A stretch of DNA of 64,000 nucleotides from a virus (IMGVR_UViG_3300014204_000125:32001-96000), one strand, 5' to 3'. Counted from the first letter of the stretch, positions 4,967-25,257 are shown. A program made the numbers and translations. Notes: generated by a model from the sequence alone, not told the origin.

Positions 4967-6123
4967 TAATAACTGAGTCCTATCATTCTAATGTTTGTTT
5001 CCAGAATTATCTTCGACCCGTCCGTCGGATTCGCGAAGAACTGTCTGATAACGCATTTATTCGTGTCGGGGTCTACGGTGAAATGCAGCGCGCCGCACAT
5101 TGTTGCGAGGCTGTCGCAGAAAAGCTGGGCGGAGATATTGAACTCGATATCGCGAGAGAGTTCGATTATGCCTTGGGTGATCACGCTGTGCGCGGTGTTG
5201 AGATCGCTACCACATGAAAGCCTGAATATCTTATCTTTGGAGAGTTTGCAGTTCACGACAAGATAAGACTTGTTTTGGATAAGGCTTGTGATTTTGCTCA
5301 ACTCATGGGCCAGGGTTTCCGAATCGATTTCGAAAGATACAGCCGTATCGCTTGTCATCATAAGTTTCTCGGAAGCGATCCGGTTCACCGGCATTATTCG
5401 ACTCATTATCTGATAAAGCCCCTCGCCGGCCGAGATCATTACCATCGAATTTGAGGCGCTGACTTCGACCTCGCCGGTGGCTAAAACACCTGCGGAATAC
5501 TCGAGGAATGCGGGCGGGATTGCAACCGTAAATTCAGTCTCGGGCGGCTCTACGAGTTCAAGGGTGGTATGGGAAAGCACTTTGCCGTTCGTGGCTTCGA
5601 ATATGACTTCATTCTCCTTACTGAAAGCGTGGATAGCGCACAGTCTTTTGTCGGCGCATTCCTTGGGACCACATGCGAATTTTACTTTCTCAAATGCGTC
5701 GGCGAGATATGGCGCATGGACAAGGAAATTCCAGATTTCTTCCCCAAAACTGGGGGCGAAGAGGGATGTCAGACCGATACAACTCAGGTCTGTTTCGAAA
5801 GATCCCTGCAAAACCTTGATGCGACCCGAGCCTGGGTCCACATCGAGACTCACTTCGATTTTCTTATCGCAGTTCTCTACGATATCTTTGATAAGAGATC
5901 CCTGAATACCGAGGAGCATCGGGGAAACCTCGCCCTGAAACTGCCCGGGCGTTTGAATCGACGCGAAGGTCATACCATCGTTGGCATGCCATGTCACATA
6001 GTTCTGTCCCGGAATCACTTGCATAACCACGATATTCGGCAGTAATAACTTGTTTGCCTTGGCAAGTTTCACTGTCGCGTCGAGAGCCTTGAAAAGGCGT
6101 TCCCTGTTGATTGAAATGAGCAT
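4966..6123 (-). CDS. DNA polymerase III beta sliding clamp-like protein (divergent, copy 1)
   Basis: 385 aa, the size of DnaN. N-terminal MLISINRERLFKAL, plus KVKFA, EATNGKVL (cf. ATDGHRL), VAIP and IEFNIS match the three-domain clamp pattern. Confidence 0.7.
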   Translation of the reverse strand: MLISINRERLFKALDATVKLAKANKLLLPNIVVMQVIPGQNYVTWHANDGMTFASIQTPGQFQGEVSPMLLGIQGSLIKDIVENCDKKIEVSLDVDPGSGRIKVLQGSFETDLSCIGLTSLFAPSFGEEIWNFLVHAPYLADAFEKVKFACGPKECADKRLCAIHAFSKENEVIFEATNGKVLSHTTLELVEPPETEFTVAIPPAFLEYSAGVLATGEVEVSASNSMVMISAGEGLYQIMSRIMPVNRIASEKLMMTSDTAVSFEIDSETLAHELSKITSLIQNKSYLVVNCKLSKDKIFRLSCGSDLNTAHSVITQGIIELSRDIEFNISAQLFCDSLATMCGALHFTVDPDTNKCVIRQFFANPTDGSKIILETNIRMIGLSY

Positions 6124-6138: not shown

Positions 6139-6663
6139 TTAAAATTTGCAAAGATTCTTTGCGCGTACCCTATTGTATTCACTTTTGAAGATTTGATAGT
6201 ATTCGAAAAAAGGAGATCCCACTGTATTACCAAGCCCTTCGATTATTACGAGACAACACGCCGGCGATATATTCTCAAAAACCTCATCGAGTATTTCGTT
6301 TTTATCAAATGCGTCCGAGAGATCATCCCAGTGCTGAATTGGTGCCGTGTTATCGTCCAAGGGTACGGTATGGACATCCCTCTTTTTATTAAGGATATGA
6401 TAGTAAATATTCCTGGAATTAACTCCGCGGATTATCCGATAAATCTCGGATTTCATCGTCTCAAAAGCAACAACCCCATTCTGACAATCCGCAATAACAA
6501 AACGAAGCGCCTTGCGATACACCGTGTAACGAATGCAGTTCATCAATTCATCCCGGCGCTCATAGTCGAGCCGCATCGCGGTATCCCGGACGGTGTCCTC
6601 GTAGATCCCCAGGATCGTATTTATCTGAGATTTAATCTCATCTATATTTTGACGCTTTTGCAT
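6139..6663 (-). CDS. Degenerate sigma-70/ECF-like protein (inferred)
   Basis: Region-2-like pattern YEDTVRDTAMRL..ERRDELM..YRKALRF..FETM..IYRIIR..NKKRD..VPLDD, then a region-4.1-like LDEVFENISPACCLVI. No clear 4.2 helix-turn-helix. Confidence 0.4.
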   Translation of the reverse strand: MQKRQNIDEIKSQINTILGIYEDTVRDTAMRLDYERRDELMNCIRYTVYRKALRFVIADCQNGVVAFETMKSEIYRIIRGVNSRNIYYHILNKKRDVHTVPLDDNTAPIQHWDDLSDAFDKNEILDEVFENISPACCLVIIEGLGNTVGSPFFEYYQIFKSEYNRVRAKNLCKF

Positions 6664-7607
6664 TTCTCTGTCAACACCGCGATTTCGGGTTCATGGCTTA
6701 AAAAGAAAGGGATTATTTGTTTATCTACAAAATCTTTGCAGGCATCGTGTACCGTCATTCCAAGGTTTTGAATACATGCCGTCGGGATTTCTCCTATATA
6801 ACTCACGAATAACCAAGCCTCAATCTCGCCCCGGTTATATCGCTGAATCAAGATATCGAGTTCTTCCAGAAATTCGAGTCGATCCAAATCAACAAACTGC
6901 GCCATATACTCATAAGTCTCAACAGCCGAAGCGATCGTATCGGTTAAATCGTCACTGCCCTCGGTTCTTTTTATTCGGGAAACCCCGAGGGTGTTCTGGG
7001 CTTTCTGGAGTCGGGTGAAAATAAGATCTCTTTCCTCCCCGATAAAAGTCCGGGGATTTCTTTGTTCGTAAAGGGTGAATCTGGCGAGCGCCATTTCACA
7101 AGATAAGACTTCGGCGAGAATCGGGACATCACTCGAATTATTTAGGTTGAAATCGTCTTTATACGCTTTCTCCCGAGTCCGTTTTGTGACTTCCTCTTCC
7201 TCGGAAAGCGCGTTCATATTGAGAATTCGATCCAAATCCGCGGAAGGGATAGGTTTTAAATCATTCTTTTGCGAATCGATTGATTTACGCTGTTCGTCAG
7301 GGGTCGTAATACTCGCCTTGATTTTACGCGGGCTCTCGTACCCGGTCACATCTTTAAGTCTTAAAAGGAAAGCGGATTCGCTGTGTCCATATGAATCAAA
7401 TATATCAAGGAAAGTTTTCTTTATATCGTTCCAAAGAATTATATCGGGATCCTGGCACATCTGGACATCCCGCATATAGCGTTCGGTTTCTTTAAAGATC
7501 CCGAAGAGATCAAACTTGGGATTCGCAGGGAAATCTTCGTTTAAAAGGAACTCATCGATGTTCCGATACGCTTTTATTTCTTTGCTTGTCTTGGGCGCTC
7601 TAGCCAT
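6642..7607 (-). CDS. Hypothetical protein, terminase small subunit candidate
   Basis: Likely start MARAPK at 7607. The motif YKDDFNLNNSSD..L..E....R..LQKAQNTLGVSRIKR and the position three genes upstream of TerL support this. Confidence 0.4.
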   Translation of the reverse strand: MARAPKTSKEIKAYRNIDEFLLNEDFPANPKFDLFGIFKETERYMRDVQMCQDPDIILWNDIKKTFLDIFDSYGHSESAFLLRLKDVTGYESPRKIKASITTPDEQRKSIDSQKNDLKPIPSADLDRILNMNALSEEEEVTKRTREKAYKDDFNLNNSSDVPILAEVLSCEMALARFTLYEQRNPRTFIGEERDLIFTRLQKAQNTLGVSRIKRTEGSDDLTDTIASAVETYEYMAQFVDLDRLEFLEELDILIQRYNRGEIEAWLFVSYIGEIPTACIQNLGMTVHDACKDFVDKQIIPFFLSHEPEIAVLTEKCKSVKI

Positions 7608-7770
7608 GCAAGACTTCCCCTTTGGTTTCACTCACATCGATCGCGTATTGCTCCATACACGAATTCAGAAGATACTTGATATCGTCTTCTGACAAATTCT
7701 TTAAAACTTTTTCCATTTTCTCGGGCGGAAAATTAAACGTGTTACAATAATTAAGGCCGAACGGTGTCAT
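7600..7770 (-). CDS. Small hypothetical protein (56 aa)
   Basis: RBS GAGAGGTGG, ATG at 7770, MTPFGLNYC...GEVLHG*; the stop overlaps the next start. Confidence 0.6.
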   Translation of the reverse strand: MTPFGLNYCNTFNFPPEKMEKVLKNLSEDDIKYLLNSCMEQYAIDVSETKGEVLHG

Positions 7771-7789
7771 GTTACCACCTCTCGGCCTT

Positions 7790-7821: not shown

Positions 7822-9231
7822 CTAATCGAACTGTTTCAGGAATATCTTAAAATGTTTTTCCACATGAACAAAATGTTCTTTCTCATATCCCGGATAAACC
7901 CCAATCCAGAAAGCTCTGTCCATTGCAATATCGCAAACAGGGAAGGAAACATTATTTATTGCCGCGATACCCGGCATCGTCTTCATAAGGGGTTGCCGCA
8001 TTATGTTGCCGGCGAAGATCATTCGGGTCTGAATGTTCTGTGATTCAAGATATCGAACCAAAGAACTTCGAGAAAATTTAGCGTCCGGCTTCAGAGTCAT
8101 TACAAAACCGAACCATGAAGGCTCTCGCAACTTGCCCAAAACCGTAGTGAACTGGGAATCATCAGGCATATCTATATTTTCGTTGAAGCCCTTAATCTGG
8201 GACAGGGTCATTTTCCACCAATCCCAGTTCTCGTTGCGCGTTTCAATAAACCCGGGCAATTTTTCGAGTTGGGTGCATCCCACCGCGGCTTGAAACTCTG
8301 TCGCCTTTAAATTAAACCCAAATGTTGAGTAAATGTATTTATGGTCATAGCCTTCCGGAATACCTTCGAATTGCTGGTCGAACCTGCTACCACAGCAATT
8401 ATCCTTTCCCGTCGGACACATGCAATCCCGGCCCCAATCCCGAAGGCTCCGAAGCACTTTTGCTATGTCGGGATCGTCGGTGCATACCATACCGCCCTCG
8501 AAGGTAAATAAGTGGTGCGCGGGATAGAATGAAAATGTTGCTATATCCGAGAAATGAGATATATTCCATGTAATCCCATCCTTGGCGCCGAGGGCGTCAC
8601 AGCAATCCGCAATCATCCAGAGGTTATTTTTTTTACACCAATCCTGAACCTTCGAGGCTTCGAATGGGGATCCGAGAACATGCGCCGCAATCACCACTTT
8701 GGCGTCGGGATGCCTTTTGAACGCCTCTTCCAAATTCTTGACTGTAATATTATAGTTTTCCTCTTGGGTCACATCGCAAAAAATAGGGATAAGTCCAAAC
8801 TGGACAAGGGGAGAAACTGTGGTAGGGAAACATAGCGCCGGCGTAATTACCTTGTCTCCCGGTTTCAGAACGGGATACTCGGTTTTATCGGGATCATTCG
8901 CCCAATTCATTAAAGCCGCGACAGCGAGAAGATTCGCGGATGAACCCGAGTTCACGAATATGGCGTGCTTTGACCCCACAAATTTAGCGAATGCGGTTTC
9001 AAATCGATTCGATATTTCACCGTCGGTTCCCCAGAAGTCGCATACGGCTTCGAGTAAAGCAAGCCTTTCTTTCTCGTCGAATACGCGGCCGGCATAAGGC
9101 ACCCGGAAAGGGCGTTGTTTCGCGCAGAGTTCGTCGTACTGTTTTCTCGCCTGATAGAATTGAGACATAAAACCTTGCAGTTTCGAATACAACGAACTGC
9201 ACCAGTGTTCGTTTTTCCACGGCATTCCCAT
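7822..9231 (-). CDS. rfbH: CDP-4-keto-6-deoxy-D-glucose 3-dehydrase (E1, RfbH/AscC/DdhC)
   Basis: VPYAGRVFD, VNSGSSANL, DCCDALG, SFYPAHH (His in place of the PLP Lys), Cys cluster RDWGRDCMCPTGKDNCC, GYDHKY, FWIGVYPG. Confidence 0.93.
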   Translation of the reverse strand: MGMPWKNEHWCSSLYSKLQGFMSQFYQARKQYDELCAKQRPFRVPYAGRVFDEKERLALLEAVCDFWGTDGEISNRFETAFAKFVGSKHAIFVNSGSSANLLAVAALMNWANDPDKTEYPVLKPGDKVITPALCFPTTVSPLVQFGLIPIFCDVTQEENYNITVKNLEEAFKRHPDAKVVIAAHVLGSPFEASKVQDWCKKNNLWMIADCCDALGAKDGITWNISHFSDIATFSFYPAHHLFTFEGGMVCTDDPDIAKVLRSLRDWGRDCMCPTGKDNCCGSRFDQQFEGIPEGYDHKYIYSTFGFNLKATEFQAAVGCTQLEKLPGFIETRNENWDWWKMTLSQIKGFNENIDMPDDSQFTTVLGKLREPSWFGFVMTLKPDAKFSRSSLVRYLESQNIQTRMIFAGNIMRQPLMKTMPGIAAINNVSFPVCDIAMDRAFWIGVYPGYEKEHFVHVEKHFKIFLKQFD

Positions 9232-10014
9232 TTACTCCCACACCTTCCAAGGCGCATTGCCTTCCCGCCACATTTTCTCGAGATCATTTTTATCTTTTAA
9301 AGTATCCATGCTATGCCAGAACCCGTCGTGTTTATACGCAGATACCTTATTGAGCATCGACAATTTCGCAAGCACAACTTCTTCGAAAGAAAAATTTTCG
9401 TAAGGCATATAATCGAAAACCTCGGGATTACATACCATGTATCCCCCGTTAATCCAGTCCTTTTCAGCTTTCGGCTTCTCAACGAAAGACTCGACTTTAC
9501 CAGAGTCGATTCCGAAATGGAGGCACCCGAATCTACCATGCGGCCGAACCGAAGTGAGTGTTACTAATGAGTTTTGATGTTCGTGGTGTCCGATCACTTT
9601 ATTCAAATCAACATCACAAACCCCGTCTCCGTATGTCAAGAAAAAACAATTCGCACCTATTGACTCTATCGCCTTCTTGATTCGAGTTCCAGTAAGAGAG
9701 TTTTCCCCAGTATCGATTAATTCAACAGAGGAAAAAGGAGGAGGCGATTTATATCCGCCATATAAATTACTTCCTCCCGAAGAATATATCGTTACATCCG
9801 AATTATTCCGTTTATAGTTCACGAAATAGTCCCGGATCATTTCGCCCTTGTAGCCCAATAATATCACGAACTCATTGAATCCGAAATGGCTAAAATGCTT
9901 CATGATATGCCAGAGGATAGGTTTGCCGCCTATCTCCACCATCGGCTTCGGGCGAATACTCGTTTCTTCCCCGAGCCGTGTCCCATACCCGCCCGCGAGG
10001 ATTACAACCTTCAT
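9232..10014 (-). CDS. rfbF: Glucose-1-phosphate cytidylyltransferase
   Basis: MKVVILAGGYGTRLGEET..PKPMVEIGGKPILWHIMK, LTYGDG, WINGG, GFWHSMDT..DK..LE.MW....APWKVW. Confidence 0.95.
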   Translation of the reverse strand: MKVVILAGGYGTRLGEETSIRPKPMVEIGGKPILWHIMKHFSHFGFNEFVILLGYKGEMIRDYFVNYKRNNSDVTIYSSGGSNLYGGYKSPPPFSSVELIDTGENSLTGTRIKKAIESIGANCFFLTYGDGVCDVDLNKVIGHHEHQNSLVTLTSVRPHGRFGCLHFGIDSGKVESFVEKPKAEKDWINGGYMVCNPEVFDYMPYENFSFEEVVLAKLSMLNKVSAYKHDGFWHSMDTLKDKNDLEKMWREGNAPWKVWE

Positions 10015-10226
10015 TTGATTACCTCGCCCTGGGCGTTCAGTTTTATTTTTGAACAAGCCTTGCGAATAGAAGCCGGCATTTTCTTATAGTTCTCTTCGTT
10101 GAACCTGACTTTAAGAACATAAGTCAGGGCTGTCGCGATATCTTTTACCGTCTTCAATTTGCCAAAATTGAGTTCATATCTGATTTCGGGTCCAATTTTA
10201 ATGTTACCTATTTCTTTCTTTTTCAT
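10011..10226 (-). CDS. Small hypothetical phage protein
   Basis: 71 aa, overlaps both neighbours, preceded by an AAGGA RBS. Confidence 0.6.
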   Translation of the reverse strand: MKKKEIGNIKIGPEIRYELNFGKLKTVKDIATALTYVLKVRFNEENYKKMPASIRKACSKIKLNAQGEVIK

Positions 10227-11238
10227 AATTTATCGTCCTTTCAAATCCTTCGAGATACCCCACCTGGGGCTCCCAGCCGAGTTCGCGTTGTATCTTCGAA
10301 CAATCCGGCACGAAATACAAACGAGAATTCGACATTGTTTTTATTTTTTTATTCACTACATTTAATTCGTACTTTGTTGCGATCGATGTAGCAAGCCTCT
10401 GCATCGTAACAGCCGCGCTCGAGTTCCCCACGTTATAGACTGCGGGCTCCCCGGGGGCTGCGAGCAATCTTAAAAATGCAATCGTAGCGTCTCTTAAATA
10501 AAGAAAGGCCCGGGTAGAACATCCGTCGCTATTGAGAACTATATCTCTTTTATTTACCGCCGCCCAGACGAGTTCAGAAAATATTCTGTGATCTTTTTCG
10601 GAAACCCCGGGACCGTAGGTGTGAAATAGCCGAGCAATCTTACAGGGGAATCCAGAGGAAAAGATCATCTGCTCCGCCATTCTTTTGCTTTCGGGATACG
10701 CCGATCTCGCCGCGGCGCAATCGAGCCCGCCGAAATCAGTCTCGTTTGTAAGACAATCCCCTTGTGGCCCTGCCCCATATATTTCCCCAGCGCTTAGAAA
10801 TAAGATGTTCTTTACATTGGGTGTCGCATATTTCAATATTTTGAGAGTGCCTTCAATATTCGGGCGCCATACATTCGCCGCTTTTTTAAAATCAGTCGGC
10901 TTCGCCGGCGATGCGCCATGAATAATATAATCGCAACCAGAAGCGACAATGTCGGACTCGTCTATGTTTTCAACTTTCTTGAAAACGGGTCTAAGTTTCA
11001 TTCCCGGCTGTGGTCTGAACTCATCCACATATTTTATTCTGTCTCGAACCGTCAGAGTCAATAAAGTCTGTAAATCCGGGGTCAAGGTTTCATTCCTATA
11101 AAGAATAAATTTAACGAGATAGGACAAGACAAGCCCGGTCCCGCCCGTTATAAAGACCGACTTCCTATTAAGGAAATTCAACCGCTCGCCTTCCTGTTTT
11201 ATAATTAAATCAAAGTCTTCTTTTAAAATGCTATTCAT
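10204..11238 (-). CDS. NAD-dependent epimerase/dehydratase (SDR; YerF-like reductase or decarboxylase)
   Basis: ITGGTGLV Rossmann motif, IIHGAS, YPESK (YxxxK), RLFHTYGPG, RAFLY. Confidence 0.88.
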   Translation of the reverse strand: MNSILKEDFDLIIKQEGERLNFLNRKSVFITGGTGLVLSYLVKFILYRNETLTPDLQTLLTLTVRDRIKYVDEFRPQPGMKLRPVFKKVENIDESDIVASGCDYIIHGASPAKPTDFKKAANVWRPNIEGTLKILKYATPNVKNILFLSAGEIYGAGPQGDCLTNETDFGGLDCAAARSAYPESKRMAEQMIFSSGFPCKIARLFHTYGPGVSEKDHRIFSELVWAAVNKRDIVLNSDGCSTRAFLYLRDATIAFLRLLAAPGEPAVYNVGNSSAAVTMQRLATSIATKYELNVVNKKIKTMSNSRLYFVPDCSKIQRELGWEPQVGYLEGFERTINYEKERNR

Positions 11239-12154
11239 TTATAAGTCCTTTAACCCTTTCAAGTCCGAGATGTTTTTCTTTATGAAGAAAAATGAAATTG
11301 GTGTTTTCAGTTTGCTCGGTTATCCAATCTATCTGAACCAGTTTCCCGGCTTCTATTATATAACAATTATACCCCAAATCAAAGAAAAAAGATAAAATAC
11401 CGTTATAATGATATCCGAACTTGGCCGTCCACTTACGGAGGATTTCAGTAAACACCATCGGGAGATCGCGCGCAATAGTTTTTTCTCCACCCTTGAATAC
11501 ATTGAGTTCGGCGCCCTCGACATCGCACTTAATAAAATCAACTCTGTACTTATGCGTTTTTACGAACTCGTCCATTTTTCTTACTTTACAGTGTTCAATT
11601 TTCTTGGGAATATCAACTCCAAGATCTTGACTCGAAGCGTTACCCGACCATTCCGGCGAATAATAAAAAGGGATACTTTTATTTTGATCCGATAACCCGC
11701 AATTAAATACCTTGGCGCAACTCCCGTTTAATTTAACATTATAATTGAGCTGAGTGAACGTATTGCAAATAGGTTCAAACGCAACGATCTTCCATTTCTC
11801 TTTTGCCTTATCAACATTAAGGCTGTACCAGCCGATGTTGGCCCCGATGTCAAAGAATGTACCCGAATCCCCAATAAGCGCAAGGATCATGTCAAGTTCG
11901 GCTTCCTCGTAGGTTCCGAAATTAAATATCTCGAGAGGTATTATTCTTTTATCCTCGATATTTACTACCATCCTAACTCTGTTTTTTCTCGAAGTAAAAA
12001 CGACCTCGCCGGCGCTGATATCAATATGAGATATCCCGACATGCCCGAGTTCCTCTGCATATCTGAAAAGAATCCGATGATATTCTTGCATCCTATTAAT
12101 AAACTCGCGTTTATCTATCTGCCCCAGATAGTGTTGATTCTTTATATCTTGCAT
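11231..12154 (-). CDS. FkbM-family SAM methyltransferase
   Basis: FFDIGANIGWYS, AFEP, IKCDVEGAE. Likely start MQDIK at 12154. Confidence 0.9.
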   Translation of the reverse strand: MQDIKNQHYLGQIDKREFINRMQEYHRILFRYAEELGHVGISHIDISAGEVVFTSRKNRVRMVVNIEDKRIIPLEIFNFGTYEEAELDMILALIGDSGTFFDIGANIGWYSLNVDKAKEKWKIVAFEPICNTFTQLNYNVKLNGSCAKVFNCGLSDQNKSIPFYYSPEWSGNASSQDLGVDIPKKIEHCKVRKMDEFVKTHKYRVDFIKCDVEGAELNVFKGGEKTIARDLPMVFTEILRKWTAKFGYHYNGILSFFFDLGYNCYIIEAGKLVQIDWITEQTENTNFIFLHKEKHLGLERVKGLINE

Positions 12155-13020
12155 CAAAATCCCTTTATCTTTGAAATAAGAACCAAATATTGATCTTGGC
12201 ATATTATATCATGTTTTAACAACAATGAAAAGCACATCAAGGCTTGCGTAGGCGCGATATTTATTTTCCACTCATTCGAAGCATCCGCAGCACTGCCGGC
12301 CCACCAACCCGTCATGAGTTCTCTAAAGAGTTCTGGCTTCAAATTTCGGCACGCGCAGACGAATCCGTATAAGGAATACACATACCCGTTGGGGGTAAAG
12401 ATCGGGGCCGCCTGTTTCTGAATAAAGTAATCCAAATTTTCGAGACAATATGTCTGAACACATTTATCTTTCGCTGATTCAAATATCATTGAGAGTTGGG
12501 CGAAGCGAGTAAAAAGGTTATCGAAAAAAACAGGAGCATGTTTTAAATAGTGTCTTGAATATATGACATTACTTATTTTACCTAAACCAAAATTTAAAAA
12601 CCTAACGAATTCATCCTGAGTCCAGCCTTGTTTTTCCGAATGCTGTGGTAACAAAGTCACTGGGAAATAAATCAAATTTTCCTGAAGATGTATAGGGAGA
12701 TCCTTGAGATAGGCAAGAACTTTTTTAACCGCTCCGGGTTTCAGTGTATCATCATCGCTCAAAAGCCAAAAATAAATCCCAATATCTTGAGCGAAAGCAC
12801 CCGAGTAATTACCTTCCGCGCCGATGTTCTCGGAATGATCAATATACTTAATCGGATATAATCCTCTTGCGAAGTCTTTGGGAGAGCCGTTATTGGAAAC
12901 GATAACTTCCAAGAGATCCCTTTCGGTTTCATCGAGCCCCCAAAAGATAGACTCGATCTGTTTCCACAAAAGATCTCCCCTGTTATATGTTGGGATATAA
13001 ATCGTGAGAAGTTTATTCAT
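12154..13020 (-). CDS. Glycosyltransferase family 2 (RfbV/abequosyltransferase-like)
   Basis: LLTIYIPTYNR, SNNGS, NIGAEGN, YFWLLSDDD. Confidence 0.88.
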   Translation of the reverse strand: MNKLLTIYIPTYNRGDLLWKQIESIFWGLDETERDLLEVIVSNNGSPKDFARGLYPIKYIDHSENIGAEGNYSGAFAQDIGIYFWLLSDDDTLKPGAVKKVLAYLKDLPIHLQENLIYFPVTLLPQHSEKQGWTQDEFVRFLNFGLGKISNVIYSRHYLKHAPVFFDNLFTRFAQLSMIFESAKDKCVQTYCLENLDYFIQKQAAPIFTPNGYVYSLYGFVCACRNLKPELFRELMTGWWAGSAADASNEWKINIAPTQALMCFSLLLKHDIICQDQYLVLISKIKGF

Positions 13021-14832
13021 AATTCCAATCCTTTATGTACATCTCACGCTTAATATCTATCTTGGGGGTCATGTCTTCGAGGGGCGGGGATACCATTGTC
13101 CCGTCCGGACGTTTACTCGAAACCGTCTTGGGCCAGAATTTCTGTTCCGGATTCATTTTGATTTCGATAAGCATCGGCCCCGGCGCCGCGAATATTCTCG
13201 GGAAAGCCTTTATCAAATCGCCTTCGTTATCGAAACAATCGTACTGCATATCGAACGCCATAGAGACCCAATCCAGACGAGGCAGAGTGAGCCCACTCTT
13301 CTTATCGCACCCCACCCTATGTCCGTTGAAATAAAGATCCTGGGTATGCTTTATACTGAGATAACCCTGATTATTGAAAACGAAAAGTTTTAAAGGAATT
13401 TTGTGGAACTTGACGGTTTGGAGTTCCTGCAAATTCAACATAAGCCCGCCGTCCCCGTGTACGCACACGAGATTTTTTCTCGAACCGTTTCTTCCGAAAT
13501 GTGCCCCGATCGCCGCGGGGAGCCCATAGCCCATTGGCGAGAACCCGCCGTTGGTAAATATATGCTGATCCTTTTTTACTTGGAAAGTGACGTTGTATCC
13601 ATAGAAAGCGGCGCCCTGATCCGTTACCATTATGTCCCCGGGAGCCATTGCCTGAGAAAGCGAATGGTAAAACGAATACGAATTAATAAACCCGTCTTCG
13701 TGATGAACGTAGGGGTCATACTCTTTGAGAGGAGCGAATTTTAATGAGCCCCGCCAGTCTTGAATTTTCTTTAGCCATGATTTTCTCTCGCGAGCGCAAA
13801 TAGGAAACACCAAGTCTTTAACCCTGTCGAAAAACATATTGAGATCGGACAGAATAATGTATTCAGGTTTGAATTTCTTGAAATTTTCATTCAAGACATG
13901 GGGATCCGCATCTACGATCGCGATCTTCGCGTTTCTTCCGAACGCTTTAAAATTATATCCCGTTGTGGGCTGGGACAGGCGCGCGCCCAAGACAAGGATA
14001 AAGTCTGCATTCTGCACCGCGATATTCCCGCAACGCTGTCCGTTTACCCCAATCCGGCCGGCAAGGAGAGGGTTATATTCTGTAATCAAATCAAATCCAA
14101 GCTTTGTTGTAACTATAGGAATCTGAAAGAGTTCAGCGTAATGCAGTGCTTTCACTTGAGTTCCTGAAAGTTTAACTCCATGACCTAAAACTATAATCGG
14201 GCGTTTCGCCTCCGCAAGCCCTTTTGTAATAAGTTTCGGATTATCCAACTGGGCTTTCATTTCGGAAACCGACATCAACCAATCCCGTTTTAATTCAACC
14301 CCGGACAAGGATATATCTTTGCTCTGAATATCAATCGGGATATCACAACCCATACCGGGCCGGGGCGTCCCGTAGTCGCCTTGTCATACGCGATCTGCAT
14401 TATGGTTTCAATTTCATTTGCATCCCGGACTGTAATTGCATATTTCGTTATTGGCGCCACCAGACTCGTAATATTGACTTCATGCACCCCGCGCTGTCGC
14501 AGTCCCGTCTGATCAATAAGCCATTGCGAATTCGACTGCCCGGAAATAATTATCATCGGGATTGAGTCGTTCCATGCACACGCAACCCCAGTGATCGCGT
14601 TTGTAGCTGCGGGGCCCGTGGTTACGAGCGCGCACCCGAGTCGATTGGAAATACGCTGATACCCTTCCGCGGCCATTACCGCGGCTTGTTCGTGGTGGCA
14701 GCATATATGTTCGAGTTGAGGATGATTGCCCAAGGAATCGATTAAGTGCATCCCGCCGCCGCCGGCTACCATGAATACTTTTTCGCATCCCCGTTTCGCG
14801 ATGAAGTCAATTACATAATCTGAAAGTTTCAA
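13013..14832 (-). pseudogene. Thiamine-pyrophosphate-dependent enzyme (acetolactate synthase/YerE-like), split by a frameshift near 14345
   Basis: The N-terminal ORF 14290-14832 has HHEQAA.MAAEGY, TTGP..TN and GRPGPVW. The C-terminal ORF 13013-14353 continues DIPIDIQ and has MGYGLPAAIG, GDGG and NNQGY. Removing 2 nt restores PGPVWVDIPIDIQ. Confidence 0.85.
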
Positions 14833-15551
14833 ATGCCCATCTCCTTAATCCGATTCTCCTGCATCCCCAGAAGCATATCTGAATCCACCCCAATACAAAA
14901 CACATTAACCCCGCACTCGAAAAGAATTACCTTCTCTCGGAGCGATGTAGCCATAGCAATTAAAGGTATTTTCAAACCCCGACATAACAACCCGATTTCG
15001 TATAAGAACTTGAGAGACTGTGCAGAATAAAGTTCTTTTTCTCCCAGATCGATCATCATATCGTAGGCCCCATAGTAAATAAAATCGCTATCTTCGACTA
15101 TGCCTTGAAAATTAGCAAAACCCAAGGCGCTTTCGATAATTGAACCCACAAGGTTCGGAGAGTTACCTTCTGATTTCACATAAGAATTGCCCGGACAATA
15201 CGGCGAATAACTCCGAGTCCCGTTCGGGGGATAATTCGCATAGTTTCTTATTTTTTGAATCGTTTTCCTCGACTCAACACCTGAAACGAGAAGTCCGGAC
15301 GCACCAGAGTCAAAAATATTACAAACAAGGCTCCCCGAAACATCCGCGGGAACCCGAACAAAAGCATTCGTCTTTTCGTCTATCTCTGAAACCAAATGTC
15401 CTATCTCGTTATACGAAATCCTGCCGTGTTCCCCGTCTATCAGAAGAAAATCCATTTGGTTCCGCGGAGTCTTCGAAAGAATACGGCCGGATTCGGCGTG
15501 GGTGATCCACATTGTTTTTCCAGGATTCTTTTGATTAAACACGCGGTACAT
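14829..15551 (-). CDS. HpcH/HpaI aldolase family protein
   Basis: DFLLIDGEHG, FVRVP, DSGASG, YPPNGTR, IIES..G, YYGAYD. Confidence 0.82.
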   Translation of the reverse strand: MYRVFNQKNPGKTMWITHAESGRILSKTPRNQMDFLLIDGEHGRISYNEIGHLVSEIDEKTNAFVRVPADVSGSLVCNIFDSGASGLLVSGVESRKTIQKIRNYANYPPNGTRSYSPYCPGNSYVKSEGNSPNLVGSIIESALGFANFQGIVEDSDFIYYGAYDMMIDLGEKELYSAQSLKFLYEIGLLCRGLKIPLIAMATSLREKVILFECGVNVFCIGVDSDMLLGMQENRIKEMGI

Positions 15552-16521
15552 CCTTTATCAACTCGCTTATTTTATCCTCGTCATAATTTACAGGGAGTTC
15601 TTTCTGAACCCGGAAAAGAATCTCTTCCCGCCAGATTTCGTCCACATTATTATCGTCTAAGTAGTCCGCATAATAAGGATGGACCCCGGCGATCCCGGCT
15701 TCTAAAGTGTTTGTATTGTATCCCCAATAAAAATCTTCTTTCATCCTATAAAAATGAGAATTGATAAGTTTAAGATAAGGAACATCCCAATATTTATTAA
15801 TGCCTTCCCTGCGAAGATGTCGTATTAAAAGTTCTATAGGAAGATTGCCTCCCCCACGACCCATCCCATAAACAGAGGCATCTATGCCATAGGGGGATTC
15901 AGTTTTCAATAACTTGAGGACATTCGCGAATGCAAGTTGGGTATTATTGTGAGCGTGGAAATTAACCCTTGAAAACCCGAGATCCCGGAGTTTCAAATAA
16001 CAATACAGAACTTCTTCGGGAAGCATTGATCCAAAACTGTCCGCGAAAGTAATCGCTTCTATGCTATCTTTGAAATCCTGAGTGAGCCGGCTGAGATATT
16101 TGAGATCGGAGTTCTGGAAACGGCAGAAACCCATAAGACTTAAAAAGACCTTGTAGCCTCTCAGAATAAGTCCTGGGATAAGGTTCAAAGCGATATCGAT
16201 ATTATGAGAATACGTCGCGAGCCTAATATATTTAAACTGGCTGTTTTCAGCCTTTGTCCAGTCTATTTCCGTATTGCGATCGCAGTCTATCATTCCGATT
16301 ATTTTACACTTTTGAGTCTCAATATCTTCGAGTCCGTGATTTCCATTTAACTTCATTTTACCATAAAAACCACGATCCAGTTTGTTCGAAATATATCCGA
16401 GTTCAAAAAAATCTACCCCAGCCTGAGTCGCGGCGTGGTATGTTTTACGGACGAGTTCATCAGAGAATTCCCAATTATTCGTGTGACCCCCATCTCGAAT
16501 TGTGCAATCGGTGATTATCAT
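15535..16521 (-). CDS. DRE-TIM metallolyase (4-hydroxy-2-oxovalerate aldolase/HMGL-like)
   Basis: DCTIRDGG, ADSFGS, FHAHNN.QLAFAN, IDASVYGMGRGGGN, VHPYY. Confidence 0.85.
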   Translation of the reverse strand: MIITDCTIRDGGHTNNWEFSDELVRKTYHAATQAGVDFFELGYISNKLDRGFYGKMKLNGNHGLEDIETQKCKIIGMIDCDRNTEIDWTKAENSQFKYIRLATYSHNIDIALNLIPGLILRGYKVFLSLMGFCRFQNSDLKYLSRLTQDFKDSIEAITFADSFGSMLPEEVLYCYLKLRDLGFSRVNFHAHNNTQLAFANVLKLLKTESPYGIDASVYGMGRGGGNLPIELLIRHLRREGINKYWDVPYLKLINSHFYRMKEDFYWGYNTNTLEAGIAGVHPYYADYLDDNNVDEIWREEILFRVQKELPVNYDEDKISELIKDVPRV

Positions 16522-17297
16522 TTCGAAACCTCAATCTTTAACTCGGAAAGACTTGAAACGATCCCGTGACAGTACGGGACAAGATGGCTTGCCGGAGTGT
16601 TGCCTGTGGTAACTCCAAGGCATTTACCCCGAAAACTCATTCCTATTTTCATATCGCCGCAAGTATCCCCAATAAAGAGGCAGTTTTCTGGTTTAATATT
16701 TTCTTTTGTAAGAAAATTCAAAGATAAGATTTGTTTGGATATTTTCTCTGGGCCTACTCCGTAAGAGACAGAATAGTGCTCTCCGAAATCGAAAATATGC
16801 CGGCACGCTTCCGTATTTCTGACATCATCCATAGATATTATTGCAATAGGAATCAGCGCATCTTTCGAAATCTTTTTCAGTCTATTCGCAAATAACCTGG
16901 CGCCAGGAACGGGCTGAATTATTTTCTTAAAATCAGCCGAAGATAAAGAAGAATGGACATATTTGAAAATCCTGTCTATTTCGTAATATGAAGCGCTATA
17001 TCCGCGTTTACAAAGACTAAGAATAACGCTCGCAATAACTGCTTCCCTACTATATCTTCCCACCGGGCCGTCTTCGAATAAAACGTCACGAACCGTATTA
17101 AGTCCCATCGAGGTGCAGGTGATTTTTTTTTCGATATTGGCCTTTAATCCGATATCATATATTTTATGAATCTCTTCCGCGCGGCGCCGGATAATTGCGC
17201 CCCAATAAATGTCGGAGTCGATAAGAGTTCCGTCTTTATCGAATATAATGGCTTCAATATTTTTGAAAACATATTTCCCGGCTTTTATATCGATCAT
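16518..17297 (-). CDS. HAD-superfamily hydrolase
   Basis: Motif I IFDKDGTL, motif IV FIGDTCGD, GVTTG. Confidence 0.85.
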   Translation of the reverse strand: MIDIKAGKYVFKNIEAIIFDKDGTLIDSDIYWGAIIRRRAEEIHKIYDIGLKANIEKKITCTSMGLNTVRDVLFEDGPVGRYSREAVIASVILSLCKRGYSASYYEIDRIFKYVHSSLSSADFKKIIQPVPGARLFANRLKKISKDALIPIAIISMDDVRNTEACRHIFDFGEHYSVSYGVGPEKISKQILSLNFLTKENIKPENCLFIGDTCGDMKIGMSFRGKCLGVTTGNTPASHLVPYCHGIVSSLSELKIEVSK

Positions 17298-17305
17298 TTC
17301 ATCTC

Positions 17306-18325
17306 CTATATACTCGCCACGAGTGGGCGAACTTTATTTACGACTTCATCGAATATTTCTCTCTGATTATACAGGTCTTCGTATCTTAAATCAAGATGTT
17401 CTTTAAAATACTTTTGCACGAGATGGCGCGCATAAGATCCGACCGAGACCCCGTGATAATTTATACCCATCATCCGCGCAAGCCAGCCCGTTCTTGCGTT
17501 GGTGCCGCCCGAAAGGAGTAAATACGCCTTGGCGTTCATGCGATCGAATAATTGCGCGCTCGCGAGAGCCTGAAGAGTTGTAGATTCATCATTGTCGCAA
17601 CCACTCATAGGATTCCCGTCAGCCTGAATTATTGTTGACCAATCCTCCCGGCCTTTCAATGCTTTCGAAATACGATCGACAAAATCGAGATCTCCGGAGT
17701 GCTTCCGGTCTATGCAATAACTCAACATGCCTCCCGGGAATAAACTTTGAAGTTCATTCCAACCCTGTATTACTTCGTCTGTCTTGGGCGATACGGCATG
17801 ATACTCGATCGAATCGATCCCCATCTCAACAAGCGGCGGGATTATCTCGGAAAACTTTCGGGTGGAGTAATGCGCGATCAGAGCGTTACTTTTACAGACT
17901 TCATGACATTTTCCACAGCCGATACACTTATGGTCTGAGACATCGAGAGGGCAGTTAAATAAATTATTAAATCGATACCCTATTGCTTCCTGAGGGCATA
18001 CTTTTACGCACTCTTTACAGTCCGAACACAGGGTATGGTCAATCGCGAACTTGCGAACATGGGGATCCCCTTTGATCCCGACGCTGACATTTATGAAACT
18101 CATATAGTCTGAAATATTCGCAAAACGTAATCCCGCCTTAGTCGCCTCAACGACTTCCGGATATGCAGCAACATCGAAATATCGTACCCCTGCAATAGCG
18201 TATATTGCAGTCATAACCTTGACTTCTTCCAAATTAGAATTACCCGCACCACATACAAGTTTAAAAACCTTACCCTGCTTAAAATGTTTCTGGAGTTCCA
18301 CCTTAGAGCGCGAAGCGTTAAACAT
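17306..18325 (-). CDS. LdpA-like 2x[4Fe-4S] protein
   Basis: FKLVCGAG, DVAA, DPHVRK, CxxCxxCxxxCP and CxGCGxCxxxC ferredoxin motifs, IEYH, DGNPMSG and SGGTN all match the LdpA family. Confidence 0.8.
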   Translation of the reverse strand: MFNASRSKVELQKHFKQGKVFKLVCGAGNSNLEEVKVMTAIYAIAGVRYFDVAAYPEVVEATKAGLRFANISDYMSFINVSVGIKGDPHVRKFAIDHTLCSDCKECVKVCPQEAIGYRFNNLFNCPLDVSDHKCIGCGKCHEVCKSNALIAHYSTRKFSEIIPPLVEMGIDSIEYHAVSPKTDEVIQGWNELQSLFPGGMLSYCIDRKHSGDLDFVDRISKALKGREDWSTIIQADGNPMSGCDNDESTTLQALASAQLFDRMNAKAYLLLSGGTNARTGWLARMMGINYHGVSVGSYARHLVQKYFKEHLDLRYEDLYNQREIFDEVVNKVRPLVASI

Positions 18326-19475
18326 CTATAAACTCCTTTATCTGTTTCTGGGTTAATTTCAAAGCGGCGTCCGGGCTTTTCTTGTACGCTTTTACCCATG
18401 TCACGAACATCTCAAGAGCCATATCAAGTTTTATTCTGGGGCGCCAACCAAGAACTCTCTTGGCCTTTGTACTGTCGATATCTAAGAAAGAAGTGTCGCT
18501 GGTCGGATGCGATTCATAATGAGAATAATGAAACCACTTCTTGTTCTTCAAAATAACGCTTAATTTATCCGCTATTTCTCCGATAGTCGTGCAATCTTCA
18601 GTGTCGGGGCCGAAGTTAAATTCTTTCCACCATCCCAAGGGGTCTCCATATTGAGAAAAACTGTCCATACAATGTTTTAAATGCTCAGAAAAATTTTCGT
18701 TATAGAGTTCTTCAGCAACAAAAAGATATCCTTCAAGCGCGGATAAAACGTGTTGCCACGGACGCACGGAAAAAAGCGATTTGAACTCTACTACTTTGTT
18801 CGATATCAAACCTTTCATCATATCCGCGAAAAGTCTGTTCTGCGCCCAGTCTCCGCCGCCGAATACATTGCCAGCGCGCACGGAACTCAAGTGATTATTT
18901 AACCCGGTCATTGTGCCATAACTTTTATTCAAAATTTCACAACACGCCTTGCTCGCGTCGTAGGGTTTATAAGGCACCATTGAATCCCTTTCACGCCGAC
19001 GCTCCCAAGGTCTTGAATCAAAGTTATCGTACACTTTATCTGTCGTAATCATTACGGCCGCAAAATGAGAACATTCGCCGGGGCCTTTGCGATACTGGGC
19101 CAGAGCATCGAGTAAATTCAAATTTGCCATGATATTATTTTCAAAAGTAAAATGCGGATTCTCCCAAGCCGCGGATACAATGGGCTGTGCCGCGAGATGA
19201 ATCACCACATCGGGCTTCCATCTATTTAATAGTCCCAAGATATCTTTCGGGCAACTTTGGCTTAAATTATATCCGTAAAAATGTTCCTGAATACAATTTA
19301 CTATGTCAAGGGATTGAAACATATTAGGAGCAGAAGGGAATTCATTCGACATCCCATATATCTTCGCGCCCAACTCGTGAAGCATCAGGCACAGCCAGGA
19401 GCCCTTGAATCCGGTATGCCCCGTTACCAATATCCGTTTGCCCTTCCAAAACTTTCTGTCTAATTGCCTCCCCAT
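18318..19475 (-). CDS. rfbG: CDP-glucose 4,6-dehydratase
   Basis: FWKGKRILVTGHTGFKGSWL, HLAAQPIV, ITTDKVY, PYDASK, RAGNVFGGGDW, RPWQHV. Confidence 0.93.
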   Translation of the reverse strand: MGRQLDRKFWKGKRILVTGHTGFKGSWLCLMLHELGAKIYGMSNEFPSAPNMFQSLDIVNCIQEHFYGYNLSQSCPKDILGLLNRWKPDVVIHLAAQPIVSAAWENPHFTFENNIMANLNLLDALAQYRKGPGECSHFAAVMITTDKVYDNFDSRPWERRRERDSMVPYKPYDASKACCEILNKSYGTMTGLNNHLSSVRAGNVFGGGDWAQNRLFADMMKGLISNKVVEFKSLFSVRPWQHVLSALEGYLFVAEELYNENFSEHLKHCMDSFSQYGDPLGWWKEFNFGPDTEDCTTIGEIADKLSVILKNKKWFHYSHYESHPTSDTSFLDIDSTKAKRVLGWRPRIKLDMALEMFVTWVKAYKKSPDAALKLTQKQIKEFIDV

Positions 19476-20416
19476 AACTCACACTCCCTCGCTATTGTAT
19501 TCACCCAATTCTCCGCCGAGAATATTTTACCCCGCCCCGCGACCCATTCGAATATCGCATCTATTTTCCTGTTGTATTCGTCATTACTCATAAACGCTAA
19601 ATCGGAAACCACATCGTCTACACTGAATTTATTTAAGTCGATAAAACATTCTTTCGGAATATAATCTAACACATCCGGGGCGCCTTTGTAAAGCGGAATT
19701 GTAAGGGACAAAAGACAGTCGATTATCTTCTCGGAAATATAGCCGGGACAAATGCAATTTTCATAAGCGAGCGCAAATCTGTATTTTGAAAGGACATCAA
19801 TTTTTCTTTCCACGGGGCCTTGGTAAAAAGGAAAGTTTTCCTTTTCCCATCCCTGTCCGTATAAATGAAATTTATTGTAATTATTGCCAAGCCAAAATAT
19901 ATCCTGCATCCTCTTGGTGTAAAGAGTTGGGAATAAAGACGAATCGTTTTGTTTATTCCCGAAAATAGCGCACATAAAACGAGTCTTACGGATCGCGTTA
20001 AATTTCTCCGTTATTCTCCATTTATTAGGCAAAAAGACTTGAACCCCATTGGGAATTTTCTTTAAAATATCAGTGCGATATGTAAATACTTTTTCGAACC
20101 ACTCGTGATGAAGTTCTCCAATATTATGCGTATAACCATTCCATATCGGGGATTCAAATGTAAGAAGAAACTTGCGAGCCCTCATAGGATATCTGATTGC
20201 GCTATCCCCGGACCTGGCATCACTTAAAAATAAAACGTCAACTTCGTCGGGATGTGAATAGCGATCTAAAGTGTCGCATCTATGACCCATTGAATTTGCC
20301 ATTTCTTTAAATAATATTAGAGGATATAAAAGAGAATCTCCTATGGAAACATTTTCGTTTTCAAACATTCTATTGTTGTTGAAATAAGCATCCGCACAGT
20401 GAAATGCAATATTCAT
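19460..20416 (-). CDS. Glycosyltransferase family 10 (fucosyltransferase-like)
   Basis: LYGQGW...K.DVLSKYRFALAYEN...GYISEKIIDC...IPLYKGA. Confidence 0.88.
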   Translation of the reverse strand: MNIAFHCADAYFNNNRMFENENVSIGDSLLYPLILFKEMANSMGHRCDTLDRYSHPDEVDVLFLSDARSGDSAIRYPMRARKFLLTFESPIWNGYTHNIGELHHEWFEKVFTYRTDILKKIPNGVQVFLPNKWRITEKFNAIRKTRFMCAIFGNKQNDSSLFPTLYTKRMQDIFWLGNNYNKFHLYGQGWEKENFPFYQGPVERKIDVLSKYRFALAYENCICPGYISEKIIDCLLSLTIPLYKGAPDVLDYIPKECFIDLNKFSVDDVVSDLAFMSNDEYNRKIDAIFEWVAGRGKIFSAENWVNTIARECELWGGN

Positions 20417-21208
20417 TTATATATCCCCCGAATAGCCAGTGCGCCATTTATCCGCGTACGCATCGAGTCCAGGGCATAGCGTGATCCCGGCGATAAAAGT
20501 TAATAAGTCGGCTTGAATATTCAAAAGTTCTGGCATTGTAATCGGAACTGCAAAGGTAGGACGATTCGGCTGACAGTCAACTAATCGGATCTGTCCGTTT
20601 GTCCATACTTGTTCGTATTCAGAAGCCGAAGCGAGCCCAACCGCAAGCGTGTAGCCTATCATATATCTTAAATGCGACTGGCTCTCTGCAAAGCCGATAT
20701 TAAAAAGAGATCTTTTAAATATTAATCCAGAAATCCAAGTGCAATGCGTGACAAGGTATTTAGGGCAACTCAAAGATTTTAGTTTAATAAACTCCTGATA
20801 ATTCGCGTATCTTTTTTCTTCCATATCGTGATGAGGCAGAATCATCAGCCCATAAACCCCATCCCTTAAATGTTGATATAAGTTTTGAATTAAACTTCCA
20901 ACAATGATATCGTCATCGCCGAGAAGCCAAACATAATCTCCCTTGGCCCATTTGACGCACTCGATATAGTTCTTTTCCGCACCAATGTTTTCCCCGTTAT
21001 ATTTATAGACAATCCCATACTGGAGTGCCGTTTTTATATTGGCCTCCCGAACTTCAAGTTTATCCGAATTATCCGAAATTAATATTTCGTTACCCTCGAG
21101 TTGCCAGCCCGGGAGCGCGCGCATGAGAGATTCCACGCACACCCTTAAATTAGCCGGCCGGTTATATGTCGGAATACAAATACTTAAAAGCATCCCAGCT
21201 CCCTCCAT
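20417..21208 (-). CDS. Glycosyltransferase family 2 (RfbV-like)
   Basis: LLSICIPTYNR, ISDNS, NIGAEKN, AKGDYVWLLGDDD. Confidence 0.88.
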   Translation of the reverse strand: MEGAGMLLSICIPTYNRPANLRVCVESLMRALPGWQLEGNEILISDNSDKLEVREANIKTALQYGIVYKYNGENIGAEKNYIECVKWAKGDYVWLLGDDDIIVGSLIQNLYQHLRDGVYGLMILPHHDMEEKRYANYQEFIKLKSLSCPKYLVTHCTWISGLIFKRSLFNIGFAESQSHLRYMIGYTLAVGLASASEYEQVWTNGQIRLVDCQPNRPTFAVPITMPELLNIQADLLTFIAGITLCPGLDAYADKWRTGYSGDI

Positions 21209-21924
21209 TCAGCAATGTTTATCTGGAGTTTTTGAAGAAGCGGATTCAGCCGCGGGAGTTCGGAACCGTAGAGGTGGGCTTCTTTTCTATGCGACTGTTT
21301 GGGGTGGTATCGGTACTGGACAAGGCATTCCGGGACATTTGACATTACTACATCTTTCTCGATGGCGAGCCGCAGCCAGAGTTCGAGATCAAGCGCGACC
21401 CGATAGGATCCATTAAAAATGAAACCACGATCCACGAGCCGTTTGTTTAACATCATGGAGGGACACCCAAACGGGCACTGGCCCTGGGATAATAAGGTTT
21501 TTATCATTGAGTTTTCTTGTGGGTATTTCCATTCACCCTCAAGCCCCTGGAACAATTTCAAGAATGTACCGCAAACATCGATCTTCATTTCTTCCATGTA
21601 AAAATATTGCTTCGAAAGTCTATCCGGTGCCGAGATATCGTCCCCGTGCGCCATCGCGATATACTTCCCCTGCGCGTCGTGCATCATGATATTCGTGCGA
21701 TCCGCGACATTAATGGAATCCTCGGGGGTGTCCATTGGTATCACGCGGTTATCCCGCATCGCCCACTCAAGAATCGTCTTCTGCGAACCATCCTCGGATC
21801 CTCCGTCAAAGATCAATAATTCGATATTATTAAGAGACTGGTTCAGAATCGATTCGATCGCAGGACTCAGGTATTCCCCTGAATTCAATACGGGCATAAC
21901 GACGGATACCAATGGATTATTCAT
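21184..21924 (-). CDS. Glycosyltransferase family 2
   Basis: PLVSVVMPV.N, DGGSEDGS, GKYIA..HGDD, DLELWLR, YRYH. Confidence 0.9.
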   Translation of the reverse strand: MNNPLVSVVMPVLNSGEYLSPAIESILNQSLNNIELLIFDGGSEDGSQKTILEWAMRDNRVIPMDTPEDSINVADRTNIMMHDAQGKYIAMAHGDDISAPDRLSKQYFYMEEMKIDVCGTFLKLFQGLEGEWKYPQENSMIKTLLSQGQCPFGCPSMMLNKRLVDRGFIFNGSYRVALDLELWLRLAIEKDVVMSNVPECLVQYRYHPKQSHRKEAHLYGSELPRLNPLLQKLQINIAEWRELGCF

Positions 21925-24929: not shown

Positions 24930-25257
24930 TATCTTCCTCCCGTTTTATTTTCTTTGAGGTCTGTTTGATTATCTTTTTAAGCCAAGCGATTTCCTTGAGT
25001 TTCGTTTCCTCGTTCTTCCCGTAGCGCTCTATCAACCCCATCTTCGCCAGTTTCTCTGCGACATAGACCTCGAGTATGCCAGCGCATCGTTTACAAATAC
25101 AGCACGAGGGCCAATATTCGAAAGAAGTCTCTTGATTTAAACCCGAGGTTAAAGAGAATCGGCCGTCATCCTTTTCCTTTTCGCAGACATCGCAGATATC
25201 GATTTCTTTATCCACACGTTTATAAACTTTGACGGAGGTTTTGACTATTTTCTTCAT
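24922..25257 (-). CDS. Hypothetical protein with two CxxC pairs
   Basis: CDVC and CKRC; ATGA coupling. Confidence 0.6.
   Translation of the reverse strand: MKKIVKTSVKVYKRVDKEIDICDVCEKEKDDGRFSLTSGLNQETSFEYWPSCCICKRCAGILEVYVAEKLAKMGLIERYGKNEETKLKEIAWLKKIIKQTSKKIKREEDND

Follow-up and report, generated by a model that had tools for sequence, protein, structure and literature searches.

A predicted branched-sugar operon with four glycosyltransferases near the packaging genes of a phage, and its possible role in virion glycosylation

Why would a phage devote some 14 kb to making and transferring a rare sugar, and what would carry that sugar? The question is raised by IMGVR_UViG_3300014204_000125:32001-96000, a stretch of 64,000 nucleotides (the window) that comprises bases 32001-96000 of a 115,335-bp IMG/VR virus record rated complete. 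Within the window, 15 co-oriented minus-strand genes, overlapping or nearly abutting, span 7822-21924. We put at roughly one in two the probability that this operon is a phage-borne, all-cytoplasmic glycosylation module that most likely decorates virion proteins; these are the preferred acceptor because the enzymes are soluble, carrier, export and integration genes are missing, and other transferases are conserved between the capsid and tail genes. Judged from sequence, the module itself is real and well defined, and its predicted chemistry matches a recently described bacterial scheme.

Direct terminal repeats of 123 bp close the genome, and its proteins recur in a second assembly, 115,353 bp long. 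On the long minus-strand arm, small genes are followed by the sugar operon and then by those for packaging, head and tail, and a plus-strand replication arm encodes a DnaE-type polymerase, DnaB, primase, RecT, RtcB and ThyX. GC content and codon use of the operon are like those of the rest of the phage, with which its codon use has converged.

The sugar operon and its predicted product

All families that a first-pass annotation, made from the sequence alone, had named in this co-oriented operon of ~14 kb were recovered with Pfam and NCBIfam (Table 1), and RfbF, RfbG and RfbH each score above the NCBIfam equivalog cut-off. The inventory had to be amended in two places, since it had overlooked the gene for an LdpA-like protein with a 2x[4Fe-4S] domain, and the thiamine diphosphate (ThDP) enzyme, listed as one gene, is encoded by two overlapping open reading frames (ORFs). 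RfbH aligns with the Yersinia E1 structure 3BCX at 7e-100 and keeps in the alignment SFYPAHH, DCCDALG and RDCxC...C, which we take to be hallmarks of E1, i.e., the His replacing the catalytic Lys and the Cys ligands of the [2Fe-2S] cluster. In the GT10-like protein, the RFALAYEN...GYISEK stretch is presumably the conserved motif of GT10 fucosyltransferases. The true start of RfbF is likely the ATG at 10014.

The acyl-branched sugars erwiniose, caryophyllose and gastriose derive from a 4-hydroxy-2-oxo acid that is made by a pyruvate aldolase and added by a YerE-like enzyme to CDP-4-keto-3,6-dideoxyglucose, after which a reductase completes the side chain; the aldolase ErwI is BphI-like, and MMAR_2331, from the cluster for caryophyllose, is a member of the aldolase/citrate-lyase family, HpcH/HpaI (PMC9306805). 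The phage operon holds aldolases of both the BphI/DmpG and the HpcH type, as predicted suppliers of the 4-hydroxy-2-oxo acid donor, and the former, HMGL-like enzyme matches 4-hydroxy-2-oxovalerate aldolases in the PDB at 1e-11 to 3e-15. A donor longer than pyruvate is argued for by the extra aldolases. The ThDP enzyme matches the YerE-like carboligase JanthE (PDB 8RPH) at 8e-77 and acetolactate synthases at 1e-37, in agreement with the YerE-like enzyme first proposed, but the plain yersiniose suggested as its product is unlikely. Because both aldolase types, the short-chain dehydrogenase/reductase (SDR) and the methyltransferase match the published scheme, the predicted product is a sugar of the erwiniose/caryophyllose class.

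The pathway would start with the conversion of glucose-1-phosphate and CTP to CDP-4-keto-3,6-dideoxy-D-glucose by RfbF, RfbG and RfbH, assigned at the family level. The two pyruvate aldolases would supply a hydroxylated 2-oxo acid, perhaps fed by the LdpA-like protein and the HAD phosphatase; the YerE-like enzyme would decarboxylate this acid and join it to C4 of the keto-sugar, the SDR would reduce the side-chain ketone, and the FkbM protein would methylate the product. The four soluble transferases of the operon, together with three GT4 enzymes encoded in the head module, would then build a glycan on a cytoplasmic acceptor, most probably virion proteins as the particles assemble.

The ErwE-ErwF-ErwI-ErwJ system of Pectobacterium atrosepticum and MMAR_2331/2332 of Mycobacterium marinum have in common with the phage the CDP-4-keto-3,6-dideoxyglucose genes, the YerE-like carboligase and an adjacent SDR; the BphI-type and HpcH-type aldolases also follow the erwiniose/caryophyllose scheme, and a methyltransferase dependent on S-adenosylmethionine (SAM) occurs in the proposed R. 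palustris cluster (PMC9306805). In contrast to these systems, the operon is phage-borne, lacks export genes, has a split ThDP gene and combines both aldolase types. It also lacks an ErwJ-type acetaldehyde dehydrogenase, in place of which it has the LdpA-like Fe-S protein and the HAD protein; no acylating acetaldehyde dehydrogenase domain (ErwJ/BphJ) was found in any operon protein with Pfam or NCBIfam. Compared with the yersiniose A pathway of Yersinia pseudotuberculosis (DdhA-D, YerE, YerF), the phage has equivalents of DdhA, DdhB and DdhC at equivalog level, a YerE-like enzyme and a candidate reductase, but no DdhD/E3, and the aldolases are additional.

A six-gene cassette in bacteria and other viruses

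The LdpA-like gene, situated between those of RfbG and the HAD protein, is the first of a conserved six-gene cassette. An LdpA-like alignment scan of 185,579 species genomes returned 80 loci, among which Ca. Aquicultor, an Elusimicrobiales metagenome-assembled genome (MAG) and a Gastranaerophilales MAG have the order LdpA-like, HAD, HMGL-like aldolase, HpcH, ThDP enzyme (as a single ORF) and SDR, as in the phage. The order thus recurs across Actinomycetota, Elusimicrobiota and Melainabacteria, and two further bacterial loci carry a partial cassette. The phage genes are 40-60% identical to the bacterial ones; the SDR, which follows the ThDP gene in bacterial and viral cassettes, shows 31-35% identity, and the position of the HAD gene is identical in both. 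In the Elusimicrobiales locus the cassette lies amid Wzy-like, Wza-like and Wzc-like genes, which assigns it to surface-polysaccharide loci, and four of the five bacterial loci hold one to six polytopic membrane proteins, including Wzy, Wza and Wzc. The phage operon would accordingly have originated from a bacterial surface-polysaccharide locus, acquired minus its export genes.

The best bacterial LdpA-like matches (L007-L086, 40-45% identity) come overwhelmingly from gut Melainabacteria/Gastranaerophilales MAGs, and in about 20 of the 80 loci an HMGL-like aldolase gene adjoins, usually directly downstream, without the remaining cassette. Aldolases of bacterial cassettes are 572-577 aa long (L075:3037-4770, L042:11729-13462, L022:5814-7532), and their C-terminal half of ~250 aa matches nothing in Pfam; their viral counterparts have 316-342 aa.

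Scans of IMG/VR with single TerL or LdpA-like proteins gave no matches, and it was the alignment-based scans that found the relatives. The full cassette is present in three contigs (L087, L088 and L089; GC 26, 35 and 46%), and about 20 contigs combine LdpA-like, YerE-like and RfbH genes, often together with FkbM, GT10 or GT4 genes. Genes homologous to the phage's adjoin the cassette for the GT10-like protein (L096, L100, L104, L107) and FkbM (L089, L096, L100, L107), and GT4 homologues accompany it in L088, L089, L094, L099 and L105. In L089 the cassette is followed without break by a GT4 gene and then by TerL and portal genes, another viral cassette contig is flanked by DnaB, helicase and DNA polymerase genes, and one record is a 296-kb T4-like jumbo phage (Gp23). 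Viral status was checked for some of the cassette contigs, the remaining aquatic ones being putatively viral; searches for Terminase_6C and for capsid proteins of nucleocytoplasmic large DNA viruses (NCLDV) were negative in five large cassette-bearing records. Among deposited phages, an operon megablast gave no match, and none of 50,697 phage records has a YerE-like or LdpA-like gene.

Two groups of phages invite comparison. In the mycobacteriophages Che8, Corndog and Myrna, the phages' own transferases are proposed to act in the cytoplasm, placing sugars on capsid and tail proteins without export genes (Freeman et al. 2023, as summarised in PMC12363180 and PMC12619734). The present phage likewise combines predicted transferases of its own with a lack of export genes; it differs in that GT2c and GT4b have no detectable similarity to mycobacteriophage records and in that the whole nucleotide-sugar pathway is phage-encoded. 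Cyanomyovirus clusters such as those of S-H68 and S-SCSM2R resemble the operon as large clusters of soluble sugar genes in lytic phages, including RfbH-like dehydrases, but the YerE-like and LdpA-like genes set the present phage apart.

Head-module transferases and neighboring genes

TerL homologues with 36-41% identity are found in 15 IMG/VR loci, where a collinear block comprises the 329-aa gene, TerL, portal, a 323-aa protein, the major capsid protein (MCP), a 170-aa protein, three GT4 genes and tail genes. In each of the 14 relatives whose sequence extends far enough, the 329-aa gene, otherwise an orphan, lies directly upstream of TerL (29-32% identity). In the present genome, too, the GT4 trio sits after MCP. 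GT4b is 48-53% identical across the family, compared with 28-37% for MCP and 27-34% for the portal protein, and the E-x7-E motif is kept in GT4a and GT4b. One group of relatives has a gene for an NAD-dependent epimerase/dehydratase between GT4b and GT4a (L119 ~19839-20564; G010:25525-26250; Pfam Epimerase 4e-72). A complete relative of 115,414 bp, with terminal repeats, has 33 proteins in common with the phage, including the whole virion module and replication genes. Since it keeps the GT4 block without the operon genes, the operon is an accessory that was added to a core head-module glycosylation set; by gene order, the GT4 trio is a core feature whose sugar supply varies, and the 14-kb operon is the largest addition. 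Conserved synteny of the operon with terL and portal in related phages, an expectation of the first-pass annotation, does not extend to true relatives.

Nor is the operon directly next to TerL, as had been stated: a 190-nt gap with a hairpin intervenes, as do three genes, which encode proteins of 329 aa and 174 aa and a clamp-like one of 385 aa. TerL, portal and MCP (a 324-aa gene) are identified by weak or structure-based evidence. The portal assignment has feature and structure support, that of TerL a weak domain match (Table 1), and PDB sequence searches with both returned nothing useful; the protease named with them in the first-pass annotation is putative. Predicted promoters (34, against 37.0 ± 7.4 after shuffling) and terminator-like sites (30, against 20.6 ± 4.9) came close to the numbers expected by chance and defined no operon boundary.

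Table 1 Features of the window, with positions counted from its first nucleotide
Feature	Position	Strand	Evidence or remark
GT2 glycosyltransferase GT2c, first operon gene	21184..21924	-	PF00535 6.7e-22; weak EpsE/TuaG similarity; no transmembrane segment
GT2 glycosyltransferase GT2b	20417..21208	-	PF00535 2.7e-17; DDD motif residues 98-100
GT10-like glycosyltransferase	19460..20416	-	PF00852 2e-14; RFALAYEN...GYISEK stretch
CDP-glucose 4,6-dehydratase RfbG/DdhB	18318..19475	-	TIGR02622 313 bits vs cut-off 278
LdpA-like TIM-barrel protein with inserted 2x[4Fe-4S] domain, 339 aa	17306..18325	-	PF12617, Fer4, DUF561
HAD-family phosphatase	16518..17297	-	PF00702 1.8e-12; FDKDGT motif
BphI/DmpG/ErwI-type class II pyruvate aldolase, HMGL-like	15535..16521	-	NF006049 6e-28, full length
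HpcH/HpaI-family aldolase	14829..15551	-	PF03328 2.7e-14
YerE/ErwE-like ThDP carboligase, N (PYR) domain ORF	14290..14832	-	PF02776 1e-34; 60% identity to intact orthologues
YerE/ErwE-like ThDP carboligase, M + PP (C) domain ORF	13013..14353	-	PF00205, PF02775
GT2 glycosyltransferase GT2a	12154..13020	-	PF00535 6e-12; DDD motif residues 89-91
FkbM-family SAM methyltransferase	11231..12202	-	TIGR01444 2e-28
SDR, candidate YerF/ErwF-position ketoreductase	10204..11238	-	PF01370 3e-28
71-aa ORF with good ribosome-binding site	10011..10226	-	
Glucose-1-phosphate cytidylyltransferase RfbF/DdhA	9232..10056	-	TIGR02623 319 bits vs cut-off 300
CDP-4-keto-6-deoxyglucose 3-dehydrase RfbH/DdhC/E1, last operon gene	7822..9231	-	NF011936 492 bits vs cut-off 423
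Stable hairpin in 190-nt gap 3' of RfbH, then A/U-rich tract, terminator-like	7754..7789	-	-24.9 kcal/mol, z -3.75
329-aa gene of packaging block, not sugar operon	6642..7631	-	directly upstream of TerL in relatives
DnaN-like sliding clamp	4966..6123	-	directly upstream of TerL
Large terminase TerL	3191..4966	-	Terminase_6C E 3e-4; 23% identity to annotated terminases, E 6e-6; weak support
HNH endonuclease	2523..3203	-	between TerL and portal
Portal protein	674..2530	-	atlas features 0.97; structure TM-score 0.56-0.57 to portal clusters
Macro-domain protein	25254..25748	-	
tmRNA, full length	28426..28835	-	Rfam 92 bits vs gathering score 47
Anti-restriction-like protein	46274..47161	+	phrog_7245
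DnaN-like sliding clamp, 554 aa	48001..49665	+	replication arm
RtcB RNA ligase	55739..56944	+	

Other genes are listed in Table 1 as observations in their own right. The two DnaN-like clamps belong to different arms, and the one upstream of TerL is not in the complete relative. The tmRNA is an Rfam match; ARAGORN detected neither a tRNA nor a tmRNA in the window. A 393-aa ORF after the capsid region was rejected as a candidate MCP when a search of 1.8 billion representatives identified it as TnpB/IS605-OrfB-like (1,715 database homologues). It lies outside the window, with the capsid region on one side and the GT4 trio on the other (L003:10733-11914, minus strand, genome 27733-28914), has a GC content of 34.6% compared with ~46% around it, and, because a copy with 72% identity occurs between the 329-aa gene and TerL in the relative L126, looks like a mobile element hopping within the phage family. 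In a 1492-aa tail protein, likewise outside the window (L002, genome 2778-7256, minus strand), there are 12 copies of the tripeptide NSG, where shuffled sequences predict 0.65; as a glycosylation "sequon" it was rejected, for the flanking contexts differ from site to site, and some of them (e.g., DDNSGVAGYEI) are, we assume, like a common β-sandwich/FN3-type domain motif.

Acceptor, alternatives and implications

The absence of membrane machinery noted for the operon holds genome-wide, no ORF having at least six predicted transmembrane segments. The complete genome has no export, lipid-carrier, initiating-transferase, flippase, polymerase or Gtr-type gene, so that flippase or polymerase genes elsewhere, which would have pointed to surface-glycan conversion, are not present, and polytopic membrane proteins (at least six spans) are likewise missing from 23 viral loci totaling 431 kb. 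With respect to the earlier proposal of a cytoplasmic acceptor on virion or DNA, the conservation of the GT4 trio after the capsid gene speaks for the virion, whereas the lack of a hydroxymethylase or TGT and the presence of ThyX speak against DNA.

Several results weigh against virion decoration with a branched sugar. Homologues of the sugar-operon genes are entirely missing from the complete relative, as are sugar epimerases and dehydratases. Ser/Thr-rich tails are absent from the virion proteins, in which no acceptor motif was found, and tblastn of GT2c and GT4b against the 50,697 phage records gave no mycobacteriophage match. GT2c resembles EpsE and TuaG, which are transferases of lipid-linked polymers. 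A canonical E3 reductase (FNR-type flavoprotein with plant-type ferredoxin domain) is lacking, PF00175 being found neither in this genome nor in four further viral records with the cassette. The LdpA-like protein could take the place either of E3 or of the partner that supplies the aldolase with an aldehyde, and E3 may also be substituted by a host reductase. In the AlphaFold2 model of the LdpA-like protein (pLDDT 86.5), a ferredoxin domain is inserted into a TIM barrel, and a fold search with the model returned generic TIM barrels only, with no specific match. The roles given to the LdpA-like and HAD proteins are guesses. Finally, the ThDP gene is frameshifted, and the ATG of its second ORF lacks the Shine-Dalgarno sequence that most neighboring genes have.

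The frameshift lends itself to a different reading, in which the branching enzyme is dead, the operon makes at most an unbranched 3,6-dideoxyhexose, and the genes are decaying cargo on the way to loss. Alignment to intact orthologues traces the split to an extra TG, a 2-nt duplication at ~14344-14347, which breaks the frame within a conserved motif, exactly after GRPGPVWV and before DIPIDIQ, and leaves the N-domain ORF with a 21-aa out-of-frame tail. The long terminal branch in the tree of the ThDP enzyme and the complete relative without the operon fit decay as well. However, the rest of the operon is intact and its genes are tightly coupled, the two ThDP halves remain 45-60% identical to their orthologues without further lesions, and the split is present in the second assembly too, and we think this outcome distinctly unlikely. 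Owing to the duplication, branching may be impaired, or a two-chain enzyme may perform it. The latter is feasible, as in ThDP enzymes the PYR domain of one chain forms the active site together with the PP domain of another. Also unlikely, in our view, is a remodeling of the host surface, whereby the rare sugar would be put on undecaprenyl-linked or wall-polymer intermediates of the host and exported by its flippase, polymerase or ligase, changing receptors and blocking superinfection or re-adsorption. The bacterial homes of the cassette are indeed surface-polysaccharide loci, EpsE and TuaG are the closest likenesses of GT2c, and similar cyanophage gene sets have been read as serving cell-surface modification. 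Yet neither the genome nor the 23 viral loci encode an initiating phosphoglycosyltransferase, flippase, polymerase or Gtr-type protein, and the conserved GT4 trio in the head module would be left unexplained. The marks of Gtr-type seroconversion, a polytopic membrane protein and a tyrosine/serine recombinase, are both absent; no such recombinase or integrase was found in the complete genome, which implies that there is no lysogenic state in which seroconversion pays.

Hypermodification of DNA, with the sugars placed on modified phage bases for restriction evasion, appears highly improbable. It would suit enzymes that are all soluble and cytoplasmic and a genome with an anti-restriction-like gene, and DNA hypermodification by phage glycosyltransferases has precedent (cited in PMC12619734), but the genome has no ThyA-family hydroxymethylase (PF00303) and no TGT/DpdA, ThyX implies ordinary thymidylate synthesis, and the GT4 genes are in the head rather than the replication module. 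No Tet/JBP was found either, in a search whose control was uninformative. An assembly chimera of phage and host polysaccharide locus is barely credible: the genes do come from bacteria, with 40-60% identity to bacterial cassettes, but the terminal repeats and the second assembly of near-equal length argue against a false join, as do the phage-like GC content and codon use, the overlap of the genes with one another, the phage genes on both sides, and the occurrence of the cassette beside TerL/portal or DNA polymerase in other phage contigs.

Taking virion decoration as the preferred reading, we tentatively propose that the virions carry a sugar of the erwiniose/caryophyllose type, produced by an export-free pathway which, with its four transferases, was added to the core set of three enzymes, and that the LdpA-like protein is a new, widely conserved enzyme. 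To our knowledge, acyl-branched sugars of this type have so far been found only in bacterial lipopolysaccharides, and virion glycosylation has been proven only in a few mycobacteriophages, where it shields the particles from antibodies. If the proposal is correct, virion glycosylation extends to an unrelated family of phages, with a rare sugar of their own making, and acyl-branched sugars gain a viral home. The operon also points to an unstudied six-gene bacterial cassette with an LdpA-like Fe-S enzyme, widespread in gut and environmental bacteria. Within the phage family, the core GT4 set with its variable sugar supply would constitute a natural experiment, in which relatives have no supply genes, one epimerase or the full operon.

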